Translations under genes and position numbers: made by a program | Virus record (IMG/VR): IMGVR_UViG_2896601577_000003 | From: a virus | Taxonomy: Duplodnaviria > Heunggongvirae > Uroviricota > Caudoviricetes | Length of the DNA stretch: 37,046 bases | Reading direction: 5' to 3' (one strand) | In this document: positions 1,718-34,010 of the stretch, piece after piece | Layout of the letters: every line of letters begins with the position of its first letter | Position numbering within the stretch: position 1 is the first letter of the stretch | The notes under the pieces: generated by a model | What the model saw: the letters and a program-made list of their open reading frames with translations, nothing else | Database searches by the model: none | What the model was told of the DNA's origin: nothing

Positions 1718-1728
1718 GGGCAAATCCA

Positions 1729-1924: not shown

Positions 1925-2059
1925 AGCGACCTCTCTTATTGTAGTGCTTGCACTATTCTAGGTTGTATTCTCTAAGATTTAAACATGACTTTCTCTATAT
2001 AATGATTTTTAGCATTAGTTAATAAACGAACGGCACTCTAAGGAGCGCCGTCAAAGATA

Positions 2060-5426: not shown

Positions 5427-6534
5427 TTATTCTGTTTCTGCTATCCATTCCGGGATTTTTGCTTCAAGTTCAAGCTGCGTGGTAAAGCCGCTGTTATCAA
5501 TGGTGTGCTCGGCTTTTGCAATAATCCAGTCCTGATAATCAATCTCGCTTTTAAAGCCTGTCACTGTGCCATGCATTTCGGGATAGAGTTCTGCACGACC
5601 ACGCGCCAGCGTGATGGAGAATGATGCGGCTCCGCGTTGTAGCTGCTGCCACTTTGCCGCCGCTGCGCGTCTTGCTGCCTGCTCGTTCTGATAAGTCTTG
5701 CGTAACACAAACACGTTGCCTTCCGCACCTTCCATATAGTCGCCTTCCCGACTGCTACTTTTCTCCTTTTTGGGTTTTGGCGGTTTGCGGCGTTTCACGC
5801 TGACTTTTTTCTTTTTCCCGTAATTAAGATCAAGCCAGTAGGCGCGTACCCCCGTATACGCCTCGCGGTCAGCAATGCGGAACTGATGGCGATCGCCGCT
5901 GCTGCGTGTAATGGCGAACGAGGGCAACGGCTGCCCCTGTGCGTTCACGCCACCACCTGGCATGATGAATAACAGATTGCCGCTTTTTACCGTGGCGATT
6001 GCTCCCAGCATTTCCGCCATGCGCGTAAGAAAGGACATGTCGCTTTCTTCGGTCTGGTCGGCGTGGTCGATTTCGATATCCATCAGCATTTCGCTGATTT
6101 GCGGTTTCAGACCGTATCGATGAGCGATGGCGGATACCACACGCTCAACGGTCACATCATGCCAGGACACCTCACGTTTAACGTTAAATTCATCCCGAAA
6201 ATCTGCGCTTCTGGCTGAAACAGTCAGCCTGTCCGGCGGTCCTTCGTGAGCGATTTCATCAACAATGTAAGTGCCTTTTTCTGTCAGCGGTTCCCCTTTC
6301 CAGCCAATGAGAACCGTCAGACGCGGCCCCGTGGCGGTAGCTGCAACTGACCATCCGCATCATCCAGCGTGATGGTGAGCTGGTCCGCCTCAAATCCCCG
6401 GTTGTCGGTCAGTTACAGGCTCATCAGGCGCTCCGCCACGCCTGACAGCGTTTTACCCTCCGAGAGAATATCAAAATCCGGCATTTTCACGGGGGCCGTG
6501 CCCTGACTGAGCAATTGCATGGTGGTGTCGGTCA
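5427..6534 (-). pseudogene. D: P2 gpD-like tail protein; C-terminal 247 codons intact, N-terminal third frame-broken
   Basis: ORF 5427..6170 matches the P2 D C-terminal region as recalled (…ATVKSGNLLFI…ITRSSGDRHQFRIADREAYTGV…REGDYMEGAEGNVF…SGFTTQLELE…). ATG at 6534-6532 gives MTDTTMQLLSQGTAPVKMPDFDILSEGKTLSGVAERLMSL, then an in-frame TAA and frame changes before 6170. Confidence 0.8.
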
Positions 6535-17186: not shown

Positions 17187-18476
17187 TTCTCGTAAACCGA
17201 GGTATTCGATAACGGCAGCAACGGTCGATTTCGCAAGAATATCCCGCCCGACTTTTGTCAGGGTTGCCAGGCTGGCGACATCATTCCCCGTAAAATACGG
17301 AAACCTGTCTGCCGCAGTAGCAAGCCCGGCCAGCGCCGTCAGGGTGGCATCTTTCGGTTGCTTACCCGCAAGCGCGTTAGTCATGGTGGTCGCAAAATTC
17401 GGGTCGTTTCCCAGCGCCGCCGCTAACTCGTTCAGCGTATTCAGTGCGTCAGGTGACGAATCTACAAGGGCGGCAATCGCAGCCATAACGAAAGCCGTGC
17501 TTGCGATTTGGGTATTATTCGTTCCCTGTCGCGCAGTTGGCGTTGTTGGCGTTCCGGTCAGCGCAGGACTGTTTAAGGGCGCTTTCTTGTTCGTTTCATC
17601 CATTACCGCCTTAACCGCTTTCGATGTCGCGGCCAGTGTTTCAGACGTGCTGTTGGTGGCACTACTGAGCTGGACTATCCCTTTTTGTGCCGTCGTGGCG
17701 TCCTGAGCGGTATATTTTGCGTTAGCAAGGTCATACGCGGCCTTTACTGCTTTCGGCGTTGCAGCCTGCGTTTCAGACGTGCTGTTGGTGGCGCTACTGA
17801 GCTGGACAAGGCCTTTTCGCGTCGTGCTGGCATCCTGCGCAGTATATTTACCGTTAGCAAGATCATACGCGGCCTTTACTGCTTTCGGCGTTGCAGCCTG
17901 CGTTTCAGACACGCTGTTAGTGGCGCTACTGAGTTGAACAAAGCCTTTTGCGGTCAGCGAGGCGTCCGGGTGACGTCGTGACTGTTCATGCTCTTTCAGT
18001 TTGTCATCCACGTAATCCACTGTGGCCATCACCATGGTGTTGTCCACGGTAAGCGCCACGGTGGCAGTGCTGGATACGGTCAGAATGGTGCGAAATGTTT
18101 GTGCACGACCGGACCCTTCGGCAACGGCTGGCTTGTAACTTTCGGCAGTATTTCCCACCGCGATTAAATCGCCGTGCTCATCAAATACACCAATTTCCCG
18201 GATCCAGAATCCGCCCGTTTCAGGAGGAATAACCAGCTCCGCAATAATGCGGTTCTGATGTGTTGCGTCCAGGATGACGCGATTAACAGTATGTCGCCAC
18301 ACCTCATGCACCAGACGGGTCTGCTTACTGTCTGGTGTGGGCAACGTGCCGCCACCGTCGCCCACGGCCATATGAGTCAGGCGGACAGGCTTACCATCTG
18401 GCGCGGCTACCTGAGCTAATTTTTTTGCACCCGTATCGGTGATAATGGTTTTAAATTTTCGTGTTGTGGTACTCAT
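17064..18476 (-). CDS. H: Tail fibre protein, constant N-terminal part (P2 gpH-like)
   Basis: 470-aa ORF with three tandem copies of a fibre repeat (…VQLSSATNSTSETQAATPKAVKAAYDLAN…). The ORF ends at 17064 only because of a 1-nt break near 17100; the reading frame otherwise continues through the crossover site into Sv'. Confidence 0.85.
   Translation of the reverse strand: MSTTTRKFKTIITDTGAKKLAQVAAPDGKPVRLTHMAVGDGGGTLPTPDSKQTRLVHEVWRHTVNRVILDATHQNRIIAELVIPPETGGFWIREIGVFDEHGDLIAVGNTAESYKPAVAEGSGRAQTFRTILTVSSTATVALTVDNTMVMATVDYVDDKLKEHEQSRRHPDASLTAKGFVQLSSATNSVSETQAATPKAVKAAYDLANGKYTAQDASTTRKGLVQLSSATNSTSETQAATPKAVKAAYDLANAKYTAQDATTAQKGIVQLSSATNSTSETLAATSKAVKAVMDETNKKAPLNSPALTGTPTTPTARQGTNNTQIASTAFVMAAIAALVDSSPDALNTLNELAAALGNDPNFATTMTNALAGKQPKDATLTALAGLATAADRFPYFTGNDVASLATLTKVGRDILAKSTVAAVIEYLGLRELGTSGEKIPLLSTANTWTNRQTFSGGLSGNCPAMPLLQQS
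17187..17212. repeat. gix/hix-like 26-bp crossover site (right boundary), inside the H coding sequence
   Basis: TTCTCGTAAACCGAGGTATTCGATAA; its reverse complement TTATCGAATACCTCGGTTTACGAGAA matches the site at 13734-13759 at 21/26 positions. Confidence 0.7.
17600..17990. repeat. Three tandem ~132-bp repeats inside H (tail-fibre repeat motif)
   Basis: Near-identical DNA units, for example starting 17731 and 17863, encoding KG(L/I)VQLSSATNS(T/V)SETQAATPKAVKAAYDLAN(G/A)KYTAQDA…; boundaries approximate. Confidence 0.6.
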
Positions 18477-19008
18477 GCTTAATCGCCTGGATAAATGGTA
18501 ATAACTTCACCGTCATAAGTTGCCGCCGCTGCGAAAATATCCCCGGAATTTCCTGAATGATATTCAGCCCTGTCATGTGGCGGCTGACCGGGCGGGCATC
18601 AGCAATCAACCGCTCCATTTCCAGATACATTTCCTCCGTCACGCCACTGTCCAGCGTGCCGACTTCAACGGTAAATGTTCCCGGTTCTCCGCCGAACTCC
18701 CACCACTCAGACACGCGAATGAGGTATCCCAGCGGCTCAATGGCCCGGCGCAGTGCGCTGATGGTCCCTTTGTGTCGGTGTATCAGCCATGCATCACGAA
18801 TAACCTGTCGCTTTGTCTCTTCCGGCCAGTTGCGATCCCAGCGGTCAACGGAAAACGCCCAGGCGAGATAAGGCAGCAGATGCACCGGGCAGGTGTCCGG
18901 CGACCACAGCGTGTTGAGGTCTACCGGAATGTCTGTAATGCGTGTTCCGACGGCTTCGGCACAACGCATGAAATTGCTGGCTGATGGTGGTAACAACGAA
19001 TTACTCAT
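18451..19008 (-). CDS. I: Baseplate protein (P2 gpI-like)
   Basis: Start MSNSLLPP… at 19008 overlaps the J stop (ATGAGTAA); the ORF-track start at 19041 is an upstream in-frame extension. Position between J and H. Confidence 0.75.
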   Translation of the reverse strand: MSNSLLPPSASNFMRCAEAVGTRITDIPVDLNTLWSPDTCPVHLLPYLAWAFSVDRWDRNWPEETKRQVIRDAWLIHRHKGTISALRRAIEPLGYLIRVSEWWEFGGEPGTFTVEVGTLDSGVTEEMYLEMERLIADARPVSRHMTGLNIIQEIPGIFSQRRQLMTVKLLPFIQAIKHEYHNTKI

Positions 19009-19896
19009 TGCGTCCACCTTCGCTGATGGTGAATGACTCACAGCGCGCCGCCTGTATGTCGCTGATGGCCATATTCTGTGTGGGTTCGATTATCTCCACG
19101 CGTTGCACACCGTGCACATGCAGTGCGGCAGCAATGGCGGACAACGCCACGTCCTGACCGATAAGCCCTGCTCAGCCAGCCACTTCCTGAACGACGATTC
19201 AGCCGCGGCCAGAATAGGTTCGGATTCCGGGCCGGGGTAAAAGTACAGTTTTGCATTCAGCCGCCATGTCACGATTCTGGCACTCTGTACGGTCAGGCGG
19301 TCGGCCACCGGGCGGGTATCCTCTGCATTCAGAACGGCGCGAACGGTATTAAGCAACGCCTCCGTTGCTGTGCCGTCGCCCTCAGTGGACAGGATGGAAA
19401 CCGTCACGTTGGCCGGAGACGGGCTGATGGCCTGCGCATCGCGTACCAGACCGCTGGCGCTGCGTGCAAAATACTCGTATGCACCTGACGGGCCAGCAAC
19501 ACTCAGACCGTCATATGCCCGTTGCGCCCGTAGTCTCAGCGAGGTGTCACTTTCCATCACTGCATCGGTGGTATCCGTTGCCGGAGTGATAACCAGGCGC
19601 TTTGTGTTCATATTGCCCGCGAGGTTGTCCAGGTCTGTCCCGGCGCTGTGGCTTAGCATGCAGGCGCGTGCACCCTCATTGACCCGCTGGCGTAACAGCA
19701 TTTCACGAAACGACATGGTTTGAGCGATAACGTTAAGGGGTTCCGATTCCAGCTCCAGCGCGGCGGAAACGGCTTCACGCTGTTCGGCGGGATAGGACGC
19801 AATCATCATGGCCTTTGTGTCAGCCAGAATTGCCTCAAAGTCAGGCTCCGCGATGATGGCGGGTTCCGGTAACTGTGAAAGGTCAACGGCAGGCAT
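19001..19896 (-). CDS. J: Baseplate protein (P2 gpJ-like), one frame break near 19172
   Basis: ORF 19090..19896 (268 aa). The C-terminus …IGQDVALSAIAAALHVHGVQRVEIIEPTQNMAISDIQAARCESFTISEGGRNE* is read in a shifted frame after a G-run; stop at 19003-19001. Confidence 0.85.
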
Positions 19897-19899
19897 GAT

Positions 19900-20250
19900 T
19901 TACTCCCTCAGCGTGATGGTTAATTCAACATTCTGCATGGTCTGCATGACAGTGCCCGACAGCGTCACCCCGGCGCGGCCTCCTGCCTTCCAGACAACGT
20001 CGATAGCGTCCAGGGCAATGCGGGGTTCCCATCGTGTCAGCGCAATCACGGCAGCACTCATGCATTGCAGACGCGTGGTGTTATTCATGGGTTCGTCAAT
20101 CAAATCAGGCACAAGGCTGCCATATTCCCGTCGCATAACCCGGCTTGCCAGCGGGGTGGTCAGGATGTCCCTGACTGACTGTTTCAGGTGCTCCATATCG
20201 TTCAGGTTTCCCGTTCCGTCCGGGTTCATTCCTGTGTAGCGGGTTGTCAC
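19900..20250 (-). CDS. W: Baseplate wedge protein (P2 gpW-like)
   Basis: 116 aa, GTG start overlapping the V stop (GTGA); position and size match P2 W. Confidence 0.8.
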   Translation of the reverse strand: MTTRYTGMNPDGTGNLNDMEHLKQSVRDILTTPLASRVMRREYGSLVPDLIDEPMNNTTRLQCMSAAVIALTRWEPRIALDAIDVVWKAGGRAGVTLSGTVMQTMQNVELTITLRE

Positions 20251-20827
20251 TGCGGGCCTCCTGTCGAATCGCTGCCACCTTTAACGCCACCGTGTTTATG
20301 CGTATGCACTGTGATGCCGTTTGAGGTGAAATTGCCGCCGCTGTGCGTGATATTGCCGCTCATCTTTCCCCTTTTGTGACGTCAAGCGTCGCCGTTCTCA
20401 GAAGGTCTGTGCATTCCACGACGGGCGTATCCAGTGTCACGCTGACGGATGCCTGCAGGGTGGCTGTTTTCATGCCGCTGGCGCTCAGTGCGCCTGCGTC
20501 CGCGTCGTAGCGGAACACCGCGCCATCCGGCGCGCTGACCACGATTTCTTTCAGGCTTTTGCCGGGGGCCGGAATGGCATCACTCCACAGGCTGCCAATT
20601 ATCATGGCGGTTTCCGGGTTGCCGCCAATGCAGGCAATTACCACCTGTTCGCCTGGTGATGGCGGCAGCCACACATTGAAGGCTCCCGCGCGAGTGGTGT
20701 TCCAGCGCAGCCAACCTGTTTCCAGTTCGCCGCTGCGAACGCGCACGCGCCAGGACTTCTCATCAACTTCAGAGATGATCCCGGTGCGGATGATATTGCT
20801 CAGTAGCCGCATGAGTTCTGCGCTCAC
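20247..20827 (-). CDS. V: Baseplate spike protein (P2 gpV-like), one frame break near 20368
   Basis: ORF 20360..20827. The C-terminal ~38 codons (…MSGNITHSGGNFTSNGITVHTHKHGGVKGGSDSTGGPQ*) are read in a shifted frame after a C-run. Confidence 0.85.
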
Positions 20828-21468
20828 CGTACAGCCTCTGCAATCCGGCCCAGCACCGTGTTATAAATCGGGCGCTCATCTGCCTGGCTGATACCCAGCA
20901 GCTCACGTACCGGGTAATCGGTGAAAATGCCCGGCGCAACCTGATCGCGCTCACCGAACTGATGAACGCGTGCAATACGTGCGGCCACGCCGCTGTAACC
21001 CACCGTCACACCGGAAGCATCTGCACGGGCTTTCAGGTAGCGGGCGGTGCGCAGTTTTACGAACATGGGGACGCGCTTTGTGCTGTCCTGGTTGATGCGC
21101 CGGGTGCGTATTTCCAGAAAGCGGTCGATGTCATCCCGGTAAAACGTGCGGATGCTGTTTTTATCCTCATCCCACCCGGTGATGGTTCGCCCGTATTTCC
21201 CCGTGTCGTGATGCCAGTTTTTCAGCGTGCGTGCTTCGTTATTCCAGATAAAGCGAATGCGCTCCTGTATCCGGGTTACGTGGCGTCTGCGTGGTGTCCA
21301 TGCGGTCCCGTCCGGCGCTTTCTGTGACCGGATACGTGCCTGCTGGGCGCGGCGTAAATCCTGTGCCAGCTTTCTGGCGATGTTATTGATGGCCTGCTGA
21401 TTCAGGCTGTCGCGGATGGCTTCAAAGGTTTCATCCACGCGAGTGAATGCCTTATCCATCGCTTTCAC
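20824..21468 (-). CDS. Tail completion / virion morphogenesis protein (P2 S position)
   Basis: 214-aa ORF between R and V, overlapping both. Assigned mainly by synteny. Confidence 0.65.
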   Translation of the reverse strand: MKAMDKAFTRVDETFEAIRDSLNQQAINNIARKLAQDLRRAQQARIRSQKAPDGTAWTPRRRHVTRIQERIRFIWNNEARTLKNWHHDTGKYGRTITGWDEDKNSIRTFYRDDIDRFLEIRTRRINQDSTKRVPMFVKLRTARYLKARADASGVTVGYSGVAARIARVHQFGERDQVAPGIFTDYPVRELLGISQADERPIYNTVLGRIAEAVR

Positions 21469-21919
21469 CCCACGTCACATCCTGGAATACATGCGACCAG
21501 TCGCCTTCGGGAGATGGCAGGCGGGGTTTTGGCTCCAGCAGGTGTTCTGCCTGCGGTGTGCCCTGACTGCTGCGCGTGATGCGAACGCGTTCCCGCAGGG
21601 GGAGCGTAAACAGGAGATCGGCGCTGTCATCGTCATTGATAACGGCGGAGAATTTGATGTCCTGATTACGCTCAGGGTTGAGCAACAACTGTGGCTGATT
21701 TTCGGATAACCACGCCAGCAGCGGCAGCGTGAGGTCGTCCAGCTCCCCGGCGTAATCCATGACAAACATCACCATCTGATAGCGGTAAACAAACGATGGG
21801 GTTTCTCCGGTCGTTTCAATGTTGCCGCTCTCCACGAAAATGGTGAATTTTTCCGGGTTAGCCTGACACCATCGGCATGAACGGGTCATGGCTTCACGCA
21901 GGGAATCAGTTTTCAGCAT
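21452..21919 (-). CDS. R: Tail completion protein (P2 gpR-like)
   Basis: 155 aa, same length as P2 R, directly downstream of the lysis cassette. Confidence 0.75.
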   Translation of the reverse strand: MLKTDSLREAMTRSCRWCQANPEKFTIFVESGNIETTGETPSFVYRYQMVMFVMDYAGELDDLTLPLLAWLSENQPQLLLNPERNQDIKFSAVINDDDSADLLFTLPLRERVRITRSSQGTPQAEHLLEPKPRLPSPEGDWSHVFQDVTWGESDG

Positions 21920-22196
21920 GGTTGTTATCCTCGTTGTTCAGTCGTTGCAGCCTGCGCTGTTCCAGTAATTCAATGGCCCGTTTATCCGCGTTACAGGTTT
22001 CCAGTGCATCCAGAAGGCGGTCGCCCCATATACCGAGATTTCCCCATGTGGGAGTGTCAGGGAAGGGGGGAGGCGTTACCGGTATGGTCAGCGTCTGCGG
22101 TATAAGCCGGACTGACGGCGCTGGCAGTGGCGCGTTCTGCGTGCCTGCGCAGCCTGTCAGTAAAACGAGCGTCAGGCAAAGCGTGGGCGCATTCAT
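21906..22196 (-). CDS. lysC: Rz1-like outer-membrane lipoprotein spanin (LysC-like), overlapping the 3' end of lysB in another frame
   Basis: Start MNAPTLCLTLVLLTGCAG has a lipobox (L-T-G-C); Pro-rich mature part; 96 codons; overlapping Rz/Rz1 architecture. Confidence 0.65.
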   Translation of the reverse strand: MNAPTLCLTLVLLTGCAGTQNAPLPAPSVRLIPQTLTIPVTPPPFPDTPTWGNLGIWGDRLLDALETCNADKRAIELLEQRRLQRLNNEDNNHAEN

Positions 22197-22464
22197 CTTT
22201 TGCAATATCGTTGCGTAGCTGTTCACGTCTTACCTCTCCGTCCTGATTGCGTTGCTGATTTTCCACGCGGAGTTGCGCCAGCACCTGCTGCATATCCTGT
22301 ACCCCGGCGCTGATGATATTCAGGGTGTCGGCGGTACTTTTCAGGGTGCTGGCCTGCGCTTCGTTTCTGGCGTTCTCCCGGCCCAGCGACCACGACAGAC
22401 GCATGGATGTTCCCCATCCGGCAGTCAGAAGGAAAGCGACGCCAAGCGTGGGCCAGAGCTTCAT
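22057..22464 (-). CDS. lysB: Rz-like inner-membrane spanin (LysB-like)
   Basis: Start MKLWPTLGVAFLLTAGWG (N-terminal TM) at 22464 overlaps the endolysin stop (ATGA), followed by a coiled-coil-like region. Confidence 0.7.
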   Translation of the reverse strand: MKLWPTLGVAFLLTAGWGTSMRLSWSLGRENARNEAQASTLKSTADTLNIISAGVQDMQQVLAQLRVENQQRNQDGEVRREQLRNDIAKDECAHALPDARFTDRLRRHAERATASAVSPAYTADADHTGNASPLP

Positions 22465-22852
22465 GCCGGATAGGCTCCGTGTGGTAACTGAAAATGCGGT
22501 CCGTCTTTCAGGGTCTTCCAGTCGCCGCCCCATTCCACCGGAATATTCAGTTCCCGGCTGGCCTGTCTGAATGCTGCTGCGATTTTTTCGTACAGCGGCC
22601 ATTCCCATGACACCTGGCTGCCGATATAAGCCACAACATCCACGGCATGCCCCGTAAGGTGGCGGCTGTTCATGGTCTGGCTCTTACCCGTGGCCACCAG
22701 TTGCTTCTGGCGGTAACGGCTGCGCAACCCTTCGGTGATACCAAAATCCACTTCCGAGATTTCCAGTGCCGTCGGGTCACTTTCACCAGATCAGGATTTA
22801 CACCCTGCAAATTCTTTTCGCTCCGGCTGCTGAATTTAAATGTGTTGCTCAT
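22461..22852 (-). CDS. Endolysin, M15-family L-alanyl-D-glutamate peptidase type (T5-Lys-like); one frame break near 22770
   Basis: MSNTFKFSSRSEKNLQGVNPDLVKVT… then, after a G-run, …EVDFGITEGLRSRYRQKQL…SRHLTGHAVDVVAY…DGPHFQLP. The H-x3-G-x-A-x-D and D-x2-H motifs fit zinc M15 peptidases. Confidence 0.75.
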
Positions 22853-23172
22853 TCGTCCTTCTCCTTCACCCTGCGATTAAAGGCCGCAATAACCTTGTCG
22901 CGAGCTTTCTCTGCACCCATAAAACCGATTGATGCGCCGATAAACGTCACGGCATCTTCAGGAAACCCGAAGAAGCGCAACGACCCGGCCACGGCCATGG
23001 CAAGAACGCCGCACGCCAGCGATCCCGTTACGGTCTGAACCAGTGTTCGTCCGTCATAAAGGCTCATCAGCGCGGAAATGCTGACCGCCGCGCCTACTGC
23101 ATACACCGTTGGCAGGTGGTCAAAGAGCCACGCAATAACCTGCTCTGTGATCCCTGTTTGAATGGTGCTCAC
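22849..23172 (-). CDS. Holin (three predicted TM helices)
   Basis: GTG start; VSTIQTGITEQVIAWLFDHLPTVYAVGAAVSISALMSL…VTGSLACGVLAMAVAG…FIGASIGFMGAEK…; immediately upstream of the endolysin. Confidence 0.6.
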   Translation of the reverse strand: MSTIQTGITEQVIAWLFDHLPTVYAVGAAVSISALMSLYDGRTLVQTVTGSLACGVLAMAVAGSLRFFGFPEDAVTFIGASIGFMGAEKARDKVIAAFNRRVKEKDE

Positions 23173-23174
23173 TG

Positions 23175-23375
23175 CTACTCCCCCCACAACTGAATCATTT
23201 CTCGTTTCTTCTTCTCCGGCTCCGGCATCTCCACTTCCTGCCCGGCGTCCAGAAATACCTGCTGACAGAGTCCGGGGTTGGCATCCAGCACCTTTTCGGT
23301 GACGCCCTGCGTCGTGCCGTAGTACCGGAAACAGAGCGAATCCACGGTGTCGCCTTCCAGTGCCTTCACTTTCAT
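23175..23375 (-). CDS. X: Tail protein X (P2 gpX-like, LysM-like)
   Basis: MKVKALEGDTVDSLCFRYYGTTQGVTEKVLDANPGLCQ… resembles P2 X as recalled. Confidence 0.75.
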   Translation of the reverse strand: MKVKALEGDTVDSLCFRYYGTTQGVTEKVLDANPGLCQQVFLDAGQEVEMPEPEKKKREMIQLWGE

Positions 23376-23869
23376 CAGCACAACTCCGCAAAGATTCGCG
23401 GGCGGCACAGAATGTCAGAGATGGCCCAGCTCACATCACGCCACAAATCCGATGTCTGTATATCCAGAGCGTCTGCCCGGCGGTCGCCCTTGTCCGTAGT
23501 GTCTGCATCACGATAACGCTCCAGAATCAGGGCGCGCGTGGCGGTATAAACAGCATTGCGCCAGTGCCAGAGATTGACGCTTTCTCCGTTAATTACGGGT
23601 GCCGGAACATCGGCCAGCGTCTGATGGCCAGCTGCCTGCTGTTCCTGCTGCCATGCTTCCAGCTCGCGGGTAACGTGTGCCACAGCCCCGGTGGCAGTAT
23701 GCAGCAGGCGGGAGGTGGTCACGCGCCCCGGCAGTCGTACCGCCAGACGCAGCTCGCGCAGCACAATATCCGGCCAGAATGCACCCGCTGAAATGCGGGT
23801 ATCGCCATCATCGGTATCGGTGATGTCGTCCTCTGCGGGTCCGGGTTCAGTTCTGGCAACCATAGTCAT
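23375..23869 (-). CDS. L: Head completion protein (P2 gpL-like)
   Basis: Start MTMVARTEP…; C-terminal …LILERYRDADTTDKGDRRADALDIQTSDLWRDVSWAISDI… matches P2 L as recalled. Confidence 0.8.
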   Translation of the reverse strand: MTMVARTEPGPAEDDITDTDDGDTRISAGAFWPDIVLRELRLAVRLPGRVTTSRLLHTATGAVAHVTRELEAWQQEQQAAGHQTLADVPAPVINGESVNLWHWRNAVYTATRALILERYRDADTTDKGDRRADALDIQTSDLWRDVSWAISDILCRPRIFAELC

Positions 23870-23972
23870 GGGGTTCACTCCTGAAAAAAAATCGGGCGGT
23901 GGGTGCGCGGTGTAAACGGTCACGGAGTCAAACCGGAACACCGCGCACGCCGCCCGCTGACGGGGTCAGTCG

Positions 23973-24773
23973 TTAACCGCGCTTCGCCTTCTGCGTCGCG
24001 GTGGTTTTTCGTGTTGCAGGCTTCCGCGTTGTCTTTTTACTTTTGCTGCTTTCGTCCTGCGCCTGCTGTGCGCTGGCGTCTTCTGGTTCGGCTGCGGAAT
24101 CGGCTTTTTTCAGGGCGCGGGAAAGGGTTGCAATCTCGCGTTTCACACCTGCGTTCGGGTTCAGGTGCATTGCTTCGCGCAGCAGCTTCAGTGACAGGGC
24201 CATGCTGTCCGCATCACTCAGGCCACGGCGGGCAAAGGCGCACGCTTTGCATAATTTGGCGCGCACTTCGTCCGGCATGTCCTGGTCGGTGACAATCTCC
24301 CGGAGGGTGTCCAGTGGTTCGATAAAGGCGGACAAATCCGCGTCGGCATCCGTCCCGGCCTGCGTCAGTACCGGATTACAGATTTCTTCGGTCAGTACCG
24401 TGGCAGCAGTACGGCCAAAGTTATCCGGCATGATGAGGTTGTGACGGACTACATACGCGCCGATACGCAGCGCAAGCGGAAGATCGCCACAGTCAATCGC
24501 CCACACCATCAGCGTGGCAATCACTTCATCCTGCTGCCCGCCGTCAGCCTCCAGCGTTCCCTCAATCCAGCCGGAAAAATCCGGCAACAACTCTTTTTTG
24601 ATGGCGGCTTTCGCGCTTCTGGCCTGTACGCCCTTAAGCCGGGCCTGTGCCAGACGCAGACGATACAGCACCTCTTCATGCGCGGTACGCGCGGCGTGGT
24701 CCACGCCTTCATTCGCCCGGCCTGCGCGCTGTGCCATCACGTTCTGCCAGTGTTGTTGTGCAGGAGTAATCAT
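23973..24773 (-). CDS. M: Terminase small subunit (P2 gpM-like)
   Basis: 266 aa with a basic C-terminal tail; position between N and L. Confidence 0.8.
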   Translation of the reverse strand: MITPAQQHWQNVMAQRAGRANEGVDHAARTAHEEVLYRLRLAQARLKGVQARSAKAAIKKELLPDFSGWIEGTLEADGGQQDEVIATLMVWAIDCGDLPLALRIGAYVVRHNLIMPDNFGRTAATVLTEEICNPVLTQAGTDADADLSAFIEPLDTLREIVTDQDMPDEVRAKLCKACAFARRGLSDADSMALSLKLLREAMHLNPNAGVKREIATLSRALKKADSAAEPEDASAQQAQDESSKSKKTTRKPATRKTTATQKAKRG

Positions 24774-24818
24774 TTTTTCTCTCCGTTACAGGCGGGCATG
24801 ATGCCCGCCGTGAGTTGA

Positions 24819-25860
24819 TTAGCTGTCGGCGAACTTCAGGCCAGTAACCATCGCGCACTTGCCATAGTCTTCAACGACATAAGCGTCATTGATGGACTGG
24901 TAGGTGGCGATGCGGTTGTATTCCGGCTCGTCTTTCATCAGGCGACGCATTGAACCTTTCTGCCAGTAAATCGACAGGTTGTTGAACGAGGTGATCAGCA
25001 TCGTTGCATCCGGGAAGAACGGCGCAAGGAACACGCCCAGCCCGCCAATGGTGCGCGATGACAGGATGAGCTGCCCGGCGAGTAATTCCGCATTGGGATT
25101 CTGGCCGCTGATGCTGTTCAGCACGGGCAGACGCAGCGAGTTAAACAGGTTGCGCCCCATAATCACCACGAGGTCGTCAGCTTCCTTGTGCCATTCATCC
25201 AGCAGGGATGAACGCGCGTCCTGTACCAGTGCATCAGCGTTCGCATACTTACCCGCGTGCGCCACGGTGTTGTCCATGTTGCGGGAGGTCAGCGTCACGT
25301 CATTCATAACGCGTTCGCTGGCGTCGGTTCTGATGTGCTCCAGCCAGCCCACGTTAACGTCCTGAAGCAGCTTGTTGGTGCTGAAGTTGGACTCATCCGC
25401 GTGAGACGTGCCGTTGAAACCGATCATGATGCGGTCAAGCGCCACCTGTCGGGCAATCTGTGCGCTGATGCGGGACTGAAAATCAGGGTGTGCCGACCAG
25501 GCATCAAGCTGCGGATACGAAATAAACGTGTCGTAGTTCACCTGTTCACACTGATATTTGCGGTTTTTCAGATCAACCACGTTATTCGGGTTACGGCGTT
25601 TTGTGCCGTCATAACTGGTATTCGTGCGCGCAATCGGTCCTGTGGTATCTAGGAGGATTTTTTCACCTTTCTGGTCGGTCACGCCGATCACGTTATTTTT
25701 TTCGTAAATTCGGTACTTTCCTTTGAGGCGTTTTCAAAACGCTGCTGCACCGCGGGTTCGCGACACCAGTGCAGATACCGGGATATTATTAAGCGACGCC
25801 TGCTGCGCCATATAGCAACCCAGCTTGTTGCGGGTAATATCTGACATCACCAGATTCATA
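24819..25860 (-). CDS. N: Major capsid protein (P2 gpN-like), N-terminal frame break(s) around 25690-25760
   Basis: ORF 24819..25691 matches the P2 N C-terminal two-thirds (…IMIGFNG…LLQDVNVGWL…DALVQDA…DLVVIMGRNL…LSIYWQKGSMRR…YVVEDY…). The N-terminus MNLVMSDITRNKLGCYMAQQ… is read from 25860 in another frame. Confidence 0.85.
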
Positions 25861-25882
25861 AAAAATTTGCTCCTTTGTCTAA

Positions 25883-26752
25883 TCAGAAGTCGGCCAGCTG
25901 GTCGGAGGCTGCGCCCGTTGCGGTGAAGCGGTTCTGCGGATCGCCGTCCTGCGTGCGCAGTTTTTCCTTCAGTGCTGCCAGCTCTGTGGTCAGTGACGTA
26001 ATTTTCTGGCGGTCCTGCTGATGGCGGGTTTCCAGCACATTAAAACGGTCGATAATGTCGGCCTGTGACGTTGCGACGCCTTCCACCGCTTCCTGAATAC
26101 GGGAAAAACTGGCGTCATCCGCTTTGCGGCCACGGCCAATAATCCCCATTACGCGGTTAAACCACTGGGTGCCTTCTTCCTGGCGTTGTTCTGCCATTTC
26201 GATGATTTCAGACTCGATGGCTTCGGAGATAAGCGGCGCTTCACCCTGGATACTGTTAAACGTCATCACCGCCTGACGTTGCTGTGCCGTGAATTTCAGG
26301 CGCTCAGTGCCCAGGCTTGCCGGGGTGTCGGTCATCGCCAGCCCGACCAGATAGGCGCGCCCGTTAACGGAGAACTGCGGGTGCAGTTCGATACTGGAAT
26401 AGATTTTCTTGCCGTCCGCAACAAGCTGCTTCATGCGCTCGGTCGGTTCGATTTCTGCATACAGCGCAGTACGTCCGGCCAGCGGACCTTCCGTAATGTC
26501 TTCCGTACTCAGTGCGGTGACATCGCCCATTGCGGAAAATTCGCTTGACGGGCATGGCGAGAGATAGTGCTCAACGTTCACGCGGGCAGCGTAAACATCC
26601 GGGTTGAAGTTCTCGGCGGCTTCACGCAGATGCACCGGACTGATTTCACGGCCATCAACAGTTGATCCGGAGACAGCCACGCGAAACTTTTTGCGGGATG
26701 TCTTTTTTTCATTAGCCATAGTTTTTGCCCCTCTGACTGGTTCTTCAGTCAT
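25883..26752 (-). CDS. O: Capsid scaffolding protein (P2 gpO-like)
   Basis: 289 aa; …FRVAVSGSTVDGREISP… N-terminus and coiled-coil C-terminus; divergent from P as in P2. Confidence 0.8.
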   Translation of the reverse strand: MTEEPVRGAKTMANEKKTSRKKFRVAVSGSTVDGREISPVHLREAAENFNPDVYAARVNVEHYLSPCPSSEFSAMGDVTALSTEDITEGPLAGRTALYAEIEPTERMKQLVADGKKIYSSIELHPQFSVNGRAYLVGLAMTDTPASLGTERLKFTAQQRQAVMTFNSIQGEAPLISEAIESEIIEMAEQRQEEGTQWFNRVMGIIGRGRKADDASFSRIQEAVEGVATSQADIIDRFNVLETRHQQDRQKITSLTTELAALKEKLRTQDGDPQNRFTATGAASDQLADF

Positions 26753-26873
26753 GATGGCAAAGCGTAACAGGCTGATACAAAGGGCTTTTGTTGTAAGAAA
26801 ACGGCCAGAACAGAGGGTTAAGGAGAACAGTTTCGCGCGCGGGTAATCTTCCTGTAATTACTCAGGGGGAGCA

Positions 26874-28623
26874 ATGATTCAGGACGCTTTTGTGCGCCAG
26901 CGTGCGCGGCAACTTTACTGGCAGGGTTATCCGCCCGCAGAAATATCACGTCTGATGGGAATAAACCCGAACACGATTTATGCGTGGAAAAAACGTGACC
27001 AGTGGGATGAAACGCCACCCGGGCAGCGTGTCACGCAGTCCATCGATGCGCGCCTCATCCAGCTTACTGAAAAACAGAATAAAACAGGCGGTGACTTTAA
27101 GGAAATAGACCTGCTGACCCGGCAGCTTAAAAAGCTGCATGATGGCCAGCCGGATGTGATGGCCGCAGGAAAGAAAGGCCGGGCGAAAAAACTCAAAAAT
27201 CATTTCACGCCGGAACAGATTGCCGCACTGCGGGAAAAAATCATCAGCAGGCTGGAGTGGCATCAGCGGGGCTGGTTTGACTCCCTGACCCTTTGCAGGG
27301 AAGCCGGGATACGTAACAGGATGATCCTGAAATCCCGACAGATTGGGGCGACCTGGTATTTTGCACAGGAAGCACTGCTGATGGCGCTGCGTGACGATGT
27401 GGCGCAACCTTACCAGCGTAACCAGATTTTTTTGTCTGCGTCGCGTCGTCAGGCGTTCCAGTTTAAAAGCATTATTCAGAAGGCGCGGCTGAAGTTGATG
27501 TGGAGCTGAAAGGGGGCGATAAAATCATCCTCTCCAACGGCGCAGAGCTGCATTTTCTCGGCACTTCTGCTGCGTCGGCACAGTCCTATACGGGCAATTT
27601 TTATTTTGATGAATTTTTCTGGGTCAGTCGCTTTGCTGAACTGCGCAAGGTGGCTGGCGCTATGGCAACCCTCAGCGGACTGCGGCGCACCTACTTCTCC
27701 ACGCCATCCACCGAAACGCACGAGGCATACGCCTACTGGAACGGCGACCGCTGGAACGAGAAAAAGGCCTCGCATAAACGCCAGCGTTTTTCTGTGGACT
27801 GGAAAACGCTGCATAACGGGCTTATCTGCCCTGACCGGACGTGGCGGCAAATTGTCACGCTGGAAGATGTGGTTAATCACGGCTGGAAACACACCGATAT
27901 CGACGAAATTCGTGATGAAAACACCGAAGACGAGTTCCTCAATCTCTATATGTGCGAGTTTGTCCGCGAAGGGGAATCGGCATTTAACCTGAATATCCTG
28001 ATTGGCTGCGGCGTTGACGGATACGACGACTGGAAAGACTGGAAACCTTTTGCTCCCCGCCGATGGGGAATCGTCCGGTATGGATTGGGTATGACGCAAA
28101 CGGCAGCAGTGGCAACGGCGACAGCGGCGCTGTGTCCGTGGTGGTTCCTCCGTCTGTTCCTGGTGGCCGTTTTCGAACGGTGGAGACGCGACGCGTTCAG
28201 GGGCTGGAGTTTGAAGAACAGGCCAGAGTCATTGAAGAGTTCACGTGTCGCTACAACGTGGAACACATCGGCATTGATGTGACGGGCGGGAACGGGGAGG
28301 CTGTTTATCAGATAGTGAAACGGTTTTTCCCTGCCGCTATTCCGTACACCTTCACGCTGTCATCAAAACGGTCGCTGGTACTGAAAATGCTGCAAATAAT
28401 GCGTGCCGGGCGGTGGGAATACGATCGCGCCGAACGCGAGCTGGTCGCGGCCTTTAACGCCGTGCGTAAGGTGAAAACACCGGGCGGCTTTATCACTTAC
28501 GAAACGGACCGAGCGAGGGGGATCAGCCACGGCGACCTTGCGTGGGTAACCATGCTTGCTGTCATTAACGAACCGATTGGCGGCGAAGGAGAAAACGAGC
28601 GTTTCACGGTTATGGAGTTCTGA
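26874..28623 (+). CDS. P: Terminase large subunit (P2 gpP-like), split into three overlapping ORFs by two frame breaks
   Basis: ORFs 26874..27509, 27500..28282 and 28063..28623 together give ~583 aa with terminase features. Breaks lie near 27500 and between about 28070 and 28280. Confidence 0.85.
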
Positions 28624-29680
28624 TGAGCAGAAAAAATAAAAAAGTGCGCATGAGTTCACGCATTGATCTCGCTGATGCGCTCAGGAAAGAATCATCGCTC
28701 AGTGCATTCACATTTGATGGTCCTTATCGCCTGACCGGGCATGACCTGCTGGACAATATGTACTGTGCTGATAACGGGCGGTGGTATGAACCCCGGTGGA
28801 CTGGTACGGTCTGGCAAGAGCTGCCCGGCAAACGTCTTGGCATCAGTCTGCGCTTTACTTTAAGCGCAATGTATTGCTCGGTTGCTACATCCCGCACCCG
28901 CTGCTTTCCCGGTAGGATTTCTCGGCGCTGGCGCTGGCGCTGGCGCTGGACTGGTTTGTGTTCGGTAACGCATTCCTTGAGCTTCGAAGCAATATGCTCG
29001 GCGAACCGCTTAAATTACGGCACGCCCTGGCGAAATACATGCGACGCGGAAGCGATCTTGAATCATGGTGGTATGTGCAGGATGGCAAGGATGCGTTTCA
29101 GTTTCGCCCAGGCAAAGTGTGTCACCTGATGAATCCTGACATTAACCAGGAAATCTACGGCATGCCGGAATATCTCGGCGCATTACTCTCGGCCAGCCTG
29201 TCTCATTCGGCGGACATGTTCAGAAAACTGTATTACGACAACGGATCCCACGCCGGGTGCATCATCTACATCGGTGCCGCGCAGGTAAACCGCGAAAGCA
29301 TGGACTCCCTGAAAGAAACGCTACAGGGTGCGCGTGGTGGTGGTGCGTTTAAAAACGTGCTCATTCATGCGCCCAACGGGGGCAAAGAGGGGGTGCAAAT
29401 TTTGCCGTTCCAGCAGATCACCGCAAAGGATGAGTTCATGAATGTTAAGGCGGCATCCCGTGATGATGTGCTGGCTGCGCACCGCGTTCCGCCGCAACTG
29501 ATGGGGGCGATGCCGGGTGAAAAAAGTGCGTTTGGTGATGTGGAGAAGGCCGCGCGGGTTTACGCAATTAACGAGCTGATGCCCGTCATGGAGGCCATGA
29601 AGCACATCAATGACTGGCTTGGCGAAGAGGTGATCCGCTTTAACCCTTACGCACTGTTAGACATCCAGCCCACATCCTGA
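28623..29680 (+). CDS. Q: Portal protein (P2 gpQ-like), split into two overlapping ORFs
   Basis: ORFs 28623..29129 and 28958..29680; start overlaps the P stop (TGATG). Frame break between about 28800 and 28915. Confidence 0.85.
28924..28947 (+). repeat. (GGCGCT)x4 hexanucleotide tandem repeat inside the portal gene
   Basis: Four perfect tandem hexamers, encoding (AL)4 in the downstream portal frame and RWRWRWRW in the upstream ORF frame. Confidence 0.85.
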
Positions 29681-29699
29681 CGCGCTTCGCTTGTCTGCT

Positions 29700-30160
29700 G
29701 CTTCGCCGGGGCATAAAAAATTTATGCCCCGACTCTCCAGCTCCTGTATCAGTCAGATAATTTCACGACGCCTTCCAGTTTATCGCCACCATCGACGGTC
29801 AGACTCTTACGCAATCCCACCGCGTTGACTGCATGTTCTCGCCGCCTCAGTGCGATTTTGACGGCCTTACCTTTCACCCCATCAAATCAGAATCCCTCAC
29901 GTATTTTTCACGCTCAGCGTGAGAAATACGGCCATTCTGTCGTGTCGCTGCGACATCGTTAAGGGAACGCTATTTACCCCCTGAAACGCGGGCTGTTCCC
30001 CGTCACCTGCGCGCAGAAAAAGCGCGTTTTTTTGTGCACGCACGGATCCTTGACGGATCCAGCCGCCACGCGGGCTGGAAGGGCAAAAATTCGTTCAAAA
30101 AAATTGTGCAAATTTGTGCACTATTGTGCAGCAGGGCGATGTGCGATTATCGCCCTAGTT
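29700..30160. other. Non-coding cos-proximal region (packaging site presumed here by synteny)
   Basis: About 470 bp with no convincing ORF, between the portal gene and the early-region cargo. Contains a perfect 10-bp-stem hairpin (29708-29730), a near-palindrome (29904-29926), direct ACGGATCC repeats (30042-30049, 30053-30060) and phased TTGTGCA repeats. I could not match the P2 19-nt cohesive end from memory. Confidence 0.3.
30104..30130. repeat. Three direct TTGTGCA repeats with exact 10-bp phasing
   Basis: TTGTGCA at 30104-30110, 30114-30120 and 30124-30130, followed by a 7-bp-stem hairpin GGGCGAT…ATCGCCC (30134-30155). Confidence 0.7.
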
Positions 30161-30169
30161 TGAGGGGGA

Positions 30170-30760
30170 TCAGGTGTTATTTTTATCTGTCGTCAGTGGG
30201 CTAAACCATCCACAATTTACATCGCATGACTGATGCGTTCTGTCCTCGTGTTTCTCCTGCCACAATGCTTTTCCGCCAGCCTTTATGATGGCTCTTTCAA
30301 CATCCCGCTCGTATCGCAAGGGCTGAAATACGTCATTAATGAAATATTCGCTTATGTCCGGAAGCGATACTGCAAAATTATTTGTTTGTTGCGCCGTCCT
30401 GCTATGCAGCAAAGCGGCATGCTTTAATGCGTCCTGTGCTTTCTGGAATTTAAGTGCATAGTCAGTGGCGATTTTTTCCAGTTCAGCGATTCGGTTGTCT
30501 TTGGTTTCCAGCCAATCAAGTAGCGCCAATACTTCAGGATCCCCGACATCCAACACTGTTACGCGTGATTTTTCATAATGTTCGTCAGCAAGAGTTCGGC
30601 CAATTTTGAAATCTCCATCATCACCATAACCGGAGCAGGCATAAACAACCTGTGCTCCAGATATTCGCTGAATTGACATTTCCTCGCCGCAAATAGGGCA
30701 TTTCGGTACTGGCACAGGTGAATAACGTTCACGTAATGCCTGATAGTTGATTTCGCTCAT
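30170..30760 (-). CDS. Hypothetical 196-aa protein with N-terminal zinc-ribbon-like motif; last gene of the early-strand operon next to cos
   Basis: MSEINYQALRERYSPVPVPKCPICGEEMSIQRISGAQVVYACSGYG… (C-x2-C … C) plus a C-terminal …HQSCDVNCGW. No family recognised. Confidence 0.55.
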   Translation of the reverse strand: MSEINYQALRERYSPVPVPKCPICGEEMSIQRISGAQVVYACSGYGDDGDFKIGRTLADEHYEKSRVTVLDVGDPEVLALLDWLETKDNRIAELEKIATDYALKFQKAQDALKHAALLHSRTAQQTNNFAVSLPDISEYFINDVFQPLRYERDVERAIIKAGGKALWQEKHEDRTHQSCDVNCGWFSPLTTDKNNT

Positions 30761-30823
30761 TAAGTCGTTCTCCTTGTTTATGTTCTGAGGTGGAGAGCAG
30801 GGCGAACTCGCCCTGATGTTGTG

Positions 30824-31135
30824 TTATTCAGGAAATAACGCCCGGATATTTCCGGCCATCTGACTGGTTATCTGTGCGGTTGATACTGGCTGTGATGTGG
30901 GGCGTTCTGTCCTGGTTTGTGTCACTGATAACGCTTCATCACCAGCCCATGCAGCCAGTCGATAAGCCTCTGCCGGATTCATTTTCAGAAGTGCCAGCCC
31001 GGCCAGAAAAGCCACGCGTTGGCCGCTTTTGCGGGCTTCTGGTGTAAGGCTGTCCAGCCAGGCGCATGCTTCTCCTTCGTTCTTGACGGCGGTGGGCTTC
31101 AGATAGAAACTTATCCGTCTGGTTGGAGTCGTCAT
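30824..31135 (-). CDS. ParR-like partition adaptor / centromere-binding protein
   Basis: From ATG at 31135: MTTPTRRISFYLKPTAVKNEGEACAWLDSLTPEARKSGQRVAFLAGLALL…IRALFPE resembles plasmid R1 ParR as recalled (…IAFKLNP…LDSIP…ALTAGLALY…LRSLFP). Start lies 4 nt after the parM-like stop with AAGGAG upstream. The ORF-track start at 31270 is an upstream extension. Confidence 0.65.
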   Translation of the reverse strand: MTTPTRRISFYLKPTAVKNEGEACAWLDSLTPEARKSGQRVAFLAGLALLKMNPAEAYRLAAWAGDEALSVTQTRTERPTSQPVSTAQITSQMAGNIRALFPE

Positions 31136-31139
31136 TGGT

Positions 31140-31745
31140 TTACTCCTTGTCCATTGCGTACAGCCCATTAACCAGAGCAAACTGTGGCACCCCGTCCGCG
31201 ATGAAAGTCGCATTAACTCCGCAGGCTTCGCGGATAGCGGGTGCCACAATCTCCGCCCCTCCACCGACAACCATCACCCGCCCGTAACCCGAAAAACCCG
31301 CCAGCGCGCGGATCACGCGTTGTTTCAGTGTTTCTTCCTTTTCACGAATTACCGCCATAAGGCTGGCGTAATGCGCGTCATTGTGGATGTGCTGGCGCAG
31401 CCAGGCTTCATCATGGCGATGTTCGATAATGGTATTGGCGATGTGGTGACTGGTGCGCATACCGTTAGTGGCCATCACCGACAGTACGGCATCGGCCATC
31501 AGAGAAACGCCCACGTGTGGATCGCAAAACACCTGGCTGATACCTGCCAGTTGCCCCTGAACCTTTGCCACATCCAGCGTGGTTCCGCCCAAATCCACAA
31601 TCAGCAGGGATTCAAACGGACTCATGTCAGCCAGTGCCTTAAAGCCAGCCGGAATGGATTCAGGCATAACCCGTACGTTACGGATAGTGAATGCTTCGCC
31701 GTTCTGGTACTCCACCGGGCGCATGACGTTCGCTTTTTTGCGGTT
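31140..31745 (-). pseudogene. ParM/StbA-like actin-fold ATPase, C-terminal ~200 codons only (5' end removed at the IS911 junction)
   Basis: …SLLIVDLGGTTLDVAKVQGQLAGISQVFCDPHVGVSLMADAV… and …GYGRVMVVGGGAEIVAPAI…VNGLYAM match the ParM phosphate-2 and C-terminal motifs. The first 5 codons of ORF 31140..31760 are encoded by the IS911 terminal repeat. Confidence 0.7.
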
Positions 31746-32902
<1,157 letters not shown>

Positions 32903-33167
32903 AACCGAAGAACACGGCGGTGCGGAGTCCGGAGAGTAACGGAATAGCAGAGAGCTTCGTGAAAACGATAAAGCGTGACTACATCAGTATCATGCCCAAA
33001 CCAGACGGGTTAACGGCAGCAAAGAACCTTGCAGAGGCGTTCGAGCATTATAACGAATGGCATCCGCATAGTGCGCTGGGTTATCGCTCGCCACGGGAAT
33101 ATCTGCGGCAGCGGGCTTGTAATGGGTTAAGTGATAACAGATGTCTGGAAATATAGGGGCAAATCCA
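32903..33167 (+). mobile_element. IS2 3'-terminal fragment (about 265 bp) abutting IS911
   Basis: Identical in content to 1464-1728 of the complete IS2 (InsD C-terminus …[28 protein letters not shown]… and right end GGGGCAAATCCA at 33167). Confidence 0.85.
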
Positions 33168-33366
33168 CTGCGGCACAGATCAGCTCGGAAAGTTCGTTAA
33201 GTGCATCCAGATCATCAGCGTAAAAAGCCACGTCATACAGACTTCGGATTGCTCTGGTCAATGAGTCACGGGCCGCACGTTCAGCATGAGCGCCTGATGC
33301 ACTTAAGCGAAAATAAAAACGCTCAAGTGCTTTGTTAATGAGAGTTTTATATTCTTTGCCCATCAC
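33168..33366 (-). pseudogene. Early-operon gene, 5' fragment truncated at the IS2 fragment
   Basis: ORF 33127..33366: MMGKEYKTLINKALERFYFRLSASGAHAERAARDSLTRAIRSLYDVAFYADDLDALNELSELICAAVD then an IS2-encoded tail. Confidence 0.4.
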
Positions 33367-33374
33367 AACGCCCT

Positions 33375-34010
33375 TTAATCTGCTTTCTGTATTTCAGCTT
33401 CTGAATCCATACAAATAATTTCGATATAGGGTTCATCGCCATTAACCTGGCGTGCCTTTTCAGCTTCGCTAATGATTTCTCGTACGGTCTGGTACGGAAG
33501 TTCCACAAGCAGTCGCGTGCCGTTCAGATAAACGTAAGTGGCTTCGTCGGCTCCGTTTTTACCCGCCGGAGTCACTCCGTCAATAGCGGATGCACGTAAT
33601 AACAGTTCACCGCGAAAATCAATAAAACGGATAAATACACCTTGTGCATGGTCTTTGGTCATAAAGCACCTGTTATAAATCAGTCTGTTTAATAAAACTT
33701 TGCCGCGAAGCAGACGATCAATCGTGCGAAGTGCTTCGTATAATGTGAAATCCTGCCCGAACTGATTGTCGCCACAGCTCAATGCAAAAATGCGGTTTCC
33801 GGTAAACGGATTGCGTGGGCATTTGTGGATCACGATTCCAGCTTTCTCAATCAGCCAGGTGTGCTCGCCGATTTGTTTTACTGGGTAGCCATCCTGCGTT
33901 GCGTGTGTATCACTCAGGCTGTAGCGGATGTTGCTGCGTGATGCACTGGTAGTGAAACGGTTAGCGTGGCGTTCTGTTCCGGTACGAAAATTACGGCGTT
34001 GCTTCAGCAT
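33375..34010 (-). CDS. Hypothetical early-operon protein (211 aa), in the position of P2 orf78/B
   Basis: Intact ORF downstream of the cox-position gene; no motif recognised. Confidence 0.45.
   Translation of the reverse strand: MLKQRRNFRTGTERHANRFTTSASRSNIRYSLSDTHATQDGYPVKQIGEHTWLIEKAGIVIHKCPRNPFTGNRIFALSCGDNQFGQDFTLYEALRTIDRLLRGKVLLNRLIYNRCFMTKDHAQGVFIRFIDFRGELLLRASAIDGVTPAGKNGADEATYVYLNGTRLLVELPYQTVREIISEAEKARQVNGDEPYIEIICMDSEAEIQKAD

Follow-up and report, generated by a model that had tools for sequence, protein, structure and literature searches.

The parM remnant and its neighbours

The window analysed here is a 37,046-nucleotide stretch of DNA from a virus of the Caudoviricetes (IMG/VR record IMGVR_UViG_2896601577_000003). 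Between positions 30170 and 31760 it contains three open reading frames (ORFs) on the minus strand, which correspond to the C-terminal part of the actin-like ATPase ParM, the adaptor protein ParR and a 196-aa protein of the Ead/Ea22 family. This region is 97–99.8% identical at the DNA level to Escherichia phage P88, to Xuanwuvirus P884B11 and to many Escherichia coli prophages. Window positions 16980–31745 are 97.9% identical to an intact prophage (L004) and 97.7% identical to P88 over ~13 kb, and matches to P884B11 reach 99.8%. As judged from its sequence, the host element is a P88-like (Xuanwuvirus, Peduoviridae) prophage of the P2 family, which is collinear with its relatives across the structural and early genes.

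In intact relatives, such as NZ_CP069978 and P88, the gene order is gpA (940 aa), ParM (319 aa), ParR (103 aa), one or more variable genes and cos, followed by the portal and terminase genes on the opposite strand. In phage P2 the equivalent place, between gene A and cos/Q, is taken by orf91, tin and old. The original prediction, which was made from the letters of the window alone, had placed the three genes at the P2 old/tin hotspot, and the P2 layout bears this out (P2 annotation; PMC9122126). Its estimate that they end ~470 bp from the portal gene was also close, as 489 nt separate the stop codon of the 196-aa ORF from that of the portal gene (29680).

The arrangement is already known, widely distributed, annotated in RefSeq and catalogued. 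Rousset et al. (2022) list it in Table S5A of their catalogue of P2 hotspots (PMC9122126), and the window shares the genes, order and position of that entry with 97–99.8% DNA identity. The window copy differs in that it is truncated by the insertion sequences (ISs) IS911 and IS2, and the locus is here inactivated by an IS-associated deletion. It is proposed, with a probability of roughly 0.8, that the locus represents the cos-proximal early-operon end of a P88-like prophage, in which the stump of a parMR pair, whose mechanism of action is inferred, lies beside an independent, swappable Ead/Ea22 gene.

The parM remnant (31140–31745, minus strand) comprises codons 119–319 of 319, an assignment made from Pfam matches and from its identity to WP_000686499. 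The corresponding 206-aa ORF (31140–31760, minus strand) matches the ParM C-terminal domain PF21523 with an E-value of 4.6e-69, and covers just the last 39 of the 158 positions of the ParM N-terminal domain PF06406 (StbA_N). The fragment is identical to residues 119–319 of the intact, 319-aa WP_000686499, and 118 codons are missing. The missing N-terminal residues include the phosphate-binding motif DDGSTN (IDDGSTNIK). A complete actin-fold ATPase with both nucleotide-binding halves is therefore absent from the window copy and is present in intact relatives, where the phage ParM aligns with R1 ParM (PDB 1mwk) over residues 2–316 (E-value 1e-92) with conservation of the nucleotide-binding motifs. 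An apparent 423-nt insertion in the parM genes of two other loci (L064 and L081) proved to be a match-reporting artefact, and parM is intact in both.

The parR gene (30824–31135, minus strand) is intact and encodes a 103-aa StbB/ParR-type adaptor from an ATG at 31135. ParR matches Plasmid_stab_B (PF10784; E-value 7.9e-23) and the PHROG 'partition protein' family phrog_2515 (6e-57), and differs from WP_000211289 by a single substitution, A80T. Alignment with R1-type StbB matches the N-terminal region and the extreme C-terminus, and ParR is ~23% identical to R1 ParR. The ParM-like and ParR-like identities first proposed for the two genes are thus upheld by Pfam and PHROG matches and by alignment to R1 ParM and R1-type StbB. 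Their reported 4-nt spacing and shared ribosome-binding site are also present, since 4 nt separate the parM TAA from the parR ATG and AAGGAG lies inside the last parM codons. An adaptor gene of ParR type directly downstream of parM is a feature of type II ParMRC systems that the window retains. Directly after parR lies a hairpin (CAGGGCGAGTTCGCCCTG; 30798–30815, minus strand), where the conserved parMR block ends and homology to P88 resumes (30798).

At least two allelic types of ParR are found, which are 51% identical and have a DNA breakpoint at ~codon 19 (window 30824–31135 compared with 4241–4555 of locus L089). The parM genes next to these divergent parR types remain >95% identical. The position of this breakpoint, with parM conserved, indicates that the recombination boundary of the hotspot reaches into parR.

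The Ead/Ea22-like gene (30170–30760, minus strand) is intact, and its 196-aa product is identical to WP_001289966, named 'ead/Ea22-like family protein' in RefSeq. Residues 2–140 match PF13935 with an E-value of 2.1e-32 and a score of 113 bits (cutoff 27). This family membership replaces the earlier description of a zinc-ribbon protein of unknown function. The zinc-ribbon label is plausible for the N-terminal module, which has the pattern CxxC...C...H (C21-x2-C24, C42 and H61, with three cysteines in total); the Pfam scan returned no zinc-ribbon match for the protein. Comparison of 515 Ead homologues reveals that the family is mosaic in its N- and C-terminal modules and shares a central helix. 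The CxxC...C...H module is conserved within its own variant, other members have Cys-free modules in its place, and the C-terminal modules are interchangeable.

An AlphaFold2 model of the Ead protein, with a mean pLDDT (predicted local distance difference test) of only 56.7, predicts a small β-rich N-domain, a helix spanning residues 75–123 and a small α/β C-domain. This modelled layout would fit the three-part architecture of N-terminal domain, coiled coil and C-terminal domain described for lambda Ea22 (PMC10834534), a protein reported to favour lysogeny (PMC7093339). The window gene resembles those of lambda Ea22 and P22 Ead (PF13935) in its family match, which is far above threshold, in the three-part layout suggested by the low-confidence model and in being an early-operon gene. 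It differs in lying at the cos-proximal hotspot of a P2-family phage rather than in the lambdoid exo–xis region, and its product differs in the C-x2-C...C...H N-terminal module and in the C-terminal module. Neither ParR nor the Ead protein had a match in sequence searches of the PDB. Ead, ParR and ParM all lacked a PADLOC match, and by this measure none of them is a recognised anti-phage defence protein; NCBIfam gave nothing useful for the three.

Alignment to the intact prophage L004 is collinear up to window position 31745 and again from 33168. Window positions 33168–33976 match L004 41220–42029, and the intervening 5.2 kb (L004 35986–41219) are absent. At the junction lies an IS911-family element (31741–32902, minus strand; orfA 32528–32866, orfB 31776–32501), assigned from Pfam matches to HTH_Tnp_1 and rve and from the RefSeq IS911 annotation of its best matches. 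Both of its terminal repeats are present, and the right-repeat (IRR) end abuts parM with a 5-bp ambiguous overlap (TGAAG). Adjoining it is a 3′ fragment of IS2 (32903–33167, plus strand), with the C-terminal part of orfB (rve_3 match, IS2 annotation) and the right terminal repeat ...GGGGCAAATCCA. This remnant is the last 265 bp of an IS2 that was interrupted by the IS911 insertion. Phage homology resumes beyond the 5.2-kb deletion in a truncated early gene (33168–33366, minus strand; Pfam DUF4754).

The deletion removed 118 parM codons, the whole of gene A, the candidate centromere described below, several small early genes and the end of the DUF4754 gene. By analogy with P2, in which the origin lies inside gene A, the replication origin would have been lost as well. 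With the parM start, the candidate centromere and gene A with its presumed origin gone, the partition module and autonomous prophage replication are dead in this copy, and the ORFs of parR and the Ead gene, still intact, are severed from the early promoter. The original prediction had described parM as lacking its first ~120 codons and the module as probably inactive. Both the truncation (118 codons) and the inactivity hold, as the parM N-terminus and the region upstream of it are deleted; the IS911/IS2 cause had not been recognised. The surviving part of ParM and the Ead protein are identical to their references and ParR is one residue off, which indicates that the deletion event was recent. 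No match to the IS911/IS2 junction was found among complete E. coli genomes in RefSeq. For this window the locus is of little importance, being an IS-generated stump in a prophage that is unable to replicate.

A second, apparently full-length IS2 is located at window positions 402–1728 (orfA 448–720, orfB 812–1717), near the ogr/hok end. Together with the IS911/IS2 junction at 31741–33167, it points to heavy IS activity in the prophage.

Conservation and possible role of parMR

The wider question is what parMR does for P2-family phages that integrate. A block that runs from the 3′ end of gene A through parM to parR is present in 1,308 of 5,426 complete E. coli genomes (24%); roughly one E. coli genome in four thus harbours an integrating phage with an R1-type actin segregation pair. 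All 80 IMG/VR loci recovered with ParM code for the protein at 99–100% identity. The gpA–parM–parR–portal layout also occurs in Hafnia and Cronobacter relatives, and it is identical in 81/81 examined loci. The view of parMR as accessory cargo has to be abandoned, given that the pair is constant in the P88-like lineage and lies upstream of the variable slot. Instead, parMR is a fixed, lineage-defining part of P88-like phages, directly behind gene A.

Among the closest known systems is ParMRC of plasmids R1 and NR1 (stbAB). Intact phage ParM is ~50% identical to its ParM over the full length, and in both cases a ParR/StbB gene (PF10784) follows immediately. In contrast to the plasmid system, the phage module resides in an integrating P2-family phage, in the early replication operon and with no promoter of its own detected. 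Furthermore, the phage has no 10-iteron parC and at best two palindromes, one of which lies inside the gene A coding region; in the window, the first 118 ParM residues and the region upstream are missing as well. True plasmid ParMs are at most 52% identical to phage ParM, which indicates that the phage module is an old, distinct branch of the R1 family with no recent plasmid donor. The only higher matches (≥95%) come from six records, at phage-level identity, and those inspected carry P88-like prophage genes.

The palindromes were found upstream of parM in intact relatives, among all 81 parMR loci with enough upstream sequence, Hafnia and Cronobacter relatives included. Two copies of GGGATT-N4-AATCCC, at ~−125 and ~−52 from the parM start, are present in 81/81 loci (offsets vary by 1–2 nt), and their spacing is 73 bp in 79 of these. 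Each palindrome sits inside a direct repeat of ~35 nt, and one falls within the end of gene A. The 35.8-kb P88 genome contains these two palindromes only, where 0.13 matches would be expected. The gene A regions of P2 and of Enterobacter phage phiT5282H contain none, and neither does the window, from which the upstream region is deleted. Variants in the palindrome arms are not compensatory, leaving a reading as RNA hairpins unsupported.

From these sequence comparisons, the palindrome pair is a better candidate parC than the TTGTGCA repeats near cos, to which the original prediction had pointed. An R1-like 11-bp iteron pattern was not seen upstream of parM (A-run periodicity). A search for parC by comparing the two ParR types gave no discrimination, as their first 18 residues are nearly identical. 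By analogy with other ParR proteins, these N-terminal 18 residues are presumed to be the DNA-contacting part.

The gene A product also differs between the lineages. It has 940 aa in P88-like phages and 761 aa in P2 (L004 36416–39238; deleted from the window). Pfam matches nothing in the ~440 C-terminal gpA residues that follow the Phage_GPA domain, and in the phage collection the last 250 residues are found only in phages that carry parMR.

It is tentatively proposed, by analogy with AlpAC of prophage CGP3 (below), that ParMR may be a DNA-positioning machine for replication or establishment, with a two-palindrome minimal centromere in the 3′ end of gene A and perhaps a coupling to the ~440-residue gpA extension; the adjacent Ead protein would then have an exclusion or lysogeny-control function. 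In the intact module, ParR dimers would most likely bind the two 16–20-bp palindromes, 73 bp apart, which span the end of gene A and the A–parM spacer, and ParM–ATP filaments captured by ParR would drive circular phage genomes away from one another. Circular monomers are the product of P2-type replication and the substrate for packaging. The pair would be co-expressed with the replication functions after infection or induction and silent in a repressed lysogen. Its task would be to place or partition circular monomers during replication, or else to ensure that both daughters of a dividing cell retain the genome while it is still unintegrated. Transient action of this kind is the most plausible, since the early operon is repressor-controlled, no promoter of the pair's own was detected and the phages are almost always integrated. 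If this proposal is correct, parMR does not serve plasmid maintenance, and the present deleted copy could not operate.

The best functional analogy, and a precedent for a partition-type machine in an integrating phage, is AlpAC of the Corynebacterium glutamicum prophage CGP3. Here, the actin-like AlpC and its adaptor AlpA are encoded in an integrated prophage, are expressed early after induction and are needed for efficient phage DNA replication (PMC4446434). AlpAC belongs to another host phylum and phage type, the AlpA site lies in the system's own promoter region, and the likeness is drawn at the level of function, a close relationship in sequence not being expected.

Several points weigh against a DNA-positioning role of this design. 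There are two candidate sites where R1 parC has 10 iterons. The palindromes co-occur perfectly with the lineage-specific C-terminal extension of gpA, such that their association with parMR is not separable from shared ancestry; phages with the same gpA C-terminus and no parMR were absent from the phage collection. The palindromes could also be RNA hairpins or sites for another protein. In addition, the scan that found no sigma-70-like promoter on the parM strand used a simple consensus match, which may miss a weak or regulated promoter. Phage 500465-2 had been taken up as a parMR-less relative and was rejected, because its record is a mis-delimited prophage prediction that contains host genes.

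Two further points on this side bear on a rival explanation, in which parMR would maintain P88-like phages stably as plasmid prophages. One P88-like genome, NZ_CP148288 (complete, 34.5 kb), has been deposited as a circular 'plasmid', and Rousset et al. have suggested maintenance as a plasmid (PMC9122126); parMR is, moreover, a bona fide R1-family partition pair. Against this explanation, 1,454 of the 1,456 copies of the parMR block in complete E. coli genomes are chromosomal, all examined phages have kept an integrase, and the PhiSM and P88 lysogens are integrated (PMC6456863; PMC5285337). As no promoter of the pair's own was detected, the immunity repressor should shut off its expression, and the circular contig could equally be an excised, induced genome. 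Maintenance of a stable plasmid prophage by parMR is consequently unlikely, and transient positioning of replicating or newly entered DNA is preferred. The circular record itself (NZ_CP148288.1; 34,461 bp), from a cat E. coli isolate, contains int, C, cox, A, parMR and all structural genes.

The cos flank and the TTGTGCA repeats

Between the portal gene and the cargo slot lies the cos flank. Its approximate cos core (GGGCTGTTCCCCGTCACCTGCGC; 29990–30012), positioned by homology, aligns with the 19-nt P2 cohesive end and was placed by comparison with P2 cosR, phiT5282H and the Hafnia relative. It is followed by a hairpin (GCGCGCAGAAAAAGCGCG), a T-run and a cos-proximal TTGTGCA copy (30009–30038), and P2 and 186 likewise have a hairpin, TTTT and then ATGCA. 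Further inward are three phased TTGTGCA repeats (30104–30130), a conserved element of the cos flank that forms one border of the cargo slot; 30130 is the exact point at which homology to P88 stops. Read on the minus strand, the repeats form a terminator-like hairpin with a T-run after it.

The phased repeats noted in the original prediction are real: there are three copies with exact 10-bp phasing, a pattern obtained in 0/100 shuffles. Their interpretation as a parMR-specific centromere does not hold. As a ParR centromere, the array would lie downstream of the operon beside cos, and in its favour it is the sole iteron-like tandem array found by Tandem Repeats Finder (TRF) in P88-like genomes, its 10-bp phasing is non-random and it is conserved in all parMR phages. 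However, Enterobacter phage phiT5282H, which has no parMR and in which gene A and the portal gene instead flank genes for an AAA ATPase and an S8 peptidase, keeps the TTGTGCA array almost unchanged beside its cos region. P2 and 186, which also lack parMR, have the cohesive-end core, hairpin, T-run and one ATGCA, with three phased ATGCA copies ~90–125 nt inward, at an equal distance from cos. In a five-way alignment of the window, P2 (L005), 186 (L090), phiT5282H (L008) and the Hafnia relative (L092), the TGCA cores are in register, the core motif being ATGCA in P2 and 186 and GTGCA in P88-like phages and phiT5282H. Known type II systems, moreover, have parC upstream of parM, as was checked in an R1-type plasmid.

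A centromere at the TTGTGCA repeats is therefore improbable. Their retention in the parMR-less phiT5282H and their counterparts in P2 and 186 identify them as a conserved cos-flank element of the P2 family, which may consist of packaging-site recognition elements. The palindromes upstream of parM remain the preferred candidate parC.

The variable cargo slot

The Ead gene occupies a slot of 667 bp (30131–30797, minus strand), bounded by conserved anchors and containing, besides the gene, a hairpin of its own (CAGGGCGAT...ATCGCCCTG; 30133–30158, minus strand) that belongs to the Ead insert. DNA homology among P88-like phages breaks at the hairpin after parR (30798) and at the third TTGTGCA repeat (30130). 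Across 46 IMG/VR loci, 20 insert types of 511–3,689 bp lie between the same two anchors, and the 667-bp Ead insert is found in 12 of the 46. Proteins encoded by other inserts match the PADLOC models AbiL, IetA (adjoining an S8 peptidase), RmrA and PDC-M04A. In the Hafnia relative parMR is present with an empty slot, where a single hairpin leads directly to the repeats. This slot corresponds to the gpA–gpQ defence hotspot of P2-like phages defined by Rousset et al. (2022; PMC9122126), and about 20 alternative cargos, the Ead gene among them, are found in it.

The original prediction had treated ParM, ParR and the 196-aa protein as one accessory cargo module that might act together, and had named co-occurrence as the check. 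The three genes are adjacent, tightly spaced and on the same strand, and the Ead arrangement is carried by 226 E. coli genomes. Nevertheless, the same parMR pair occurs with about 20 different downstream cargos or with none, P88-like DNA homology breaks exactly at the post-parR hairpin and the TTGTGCA repeats, and Ead-family genes also turn up elsewhere, for instance on plasmids of ~110 kb and, in P88 itself, at a different site. The three genes are thus not one unit, and joint action as a single module is scarcely credible. An independent, exchangeable Ead gene beside a fixed parMR pair accounts for the arrangement.

The hairpins at 30133–30158 and 30798–30815 bracket the slot and have a common stem, CAGGGCGA/TCGCCCTG. 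This shared stem, together with the single hairpin in the empty Hafnia slot, suggests the terminator hairpin of the early operon as the site of cargo exchange or insertion.

The location in a defence hotspot also bears on a further rival explanation, that parMR counters other elements, such as competing phages or the partition of R1/IncF-type plasmids; the locus is rich in defence systems and phage ParM is ~50% identical to IncF ParMs of the same hosts, and yet this role is highly improbable, in view of the lack of PADLOC matches, the constancy of parMR within the lineage, its place ahead of the variable slot within the early operon and the identity of only ~23% between ParR and R1 ParR. The question of what parMR does in integrating phages, for which transient DNA positioning is favoured here, is narrowed by a specific candidate centromere, by the assignment of the TTGTGCA repeats to the cos-flank design and by the placement of the module upstream of the true variable slot.

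A second hotspot of the P2 type, flanked by the ogr/hok side and gpD, is occupied in the window by a 952-aa ORF (2060–4918, minus strand) with three or four N-terminal transmembrane segments, inside an island of 32–34% GC (2001–5430). The ORF had no Pfam, NCBIfam or PADLOC match. Among the 5,426 complete E. coli genomes just 5 contain the island, with the annotation 'MFS transporter' or 'hypothetical', and the ORF is possibly a prophage-borne defence or exclusion gene.

Relative to the intact prophage, the window has single-base deletions at 17100, 18541, 19166, 20368, 22769, 27484, 28060, 28789 and 29998, which produce apparent frameshifts in terminase, portal, tail and baseplate genes. Runs of C are shortened at seven of these positions (17100, 18541, 19166, 20368, 22769, 28060 and 29998), which suggests that the deletions are homopolymer sequencing errors and not real pseudogenes.

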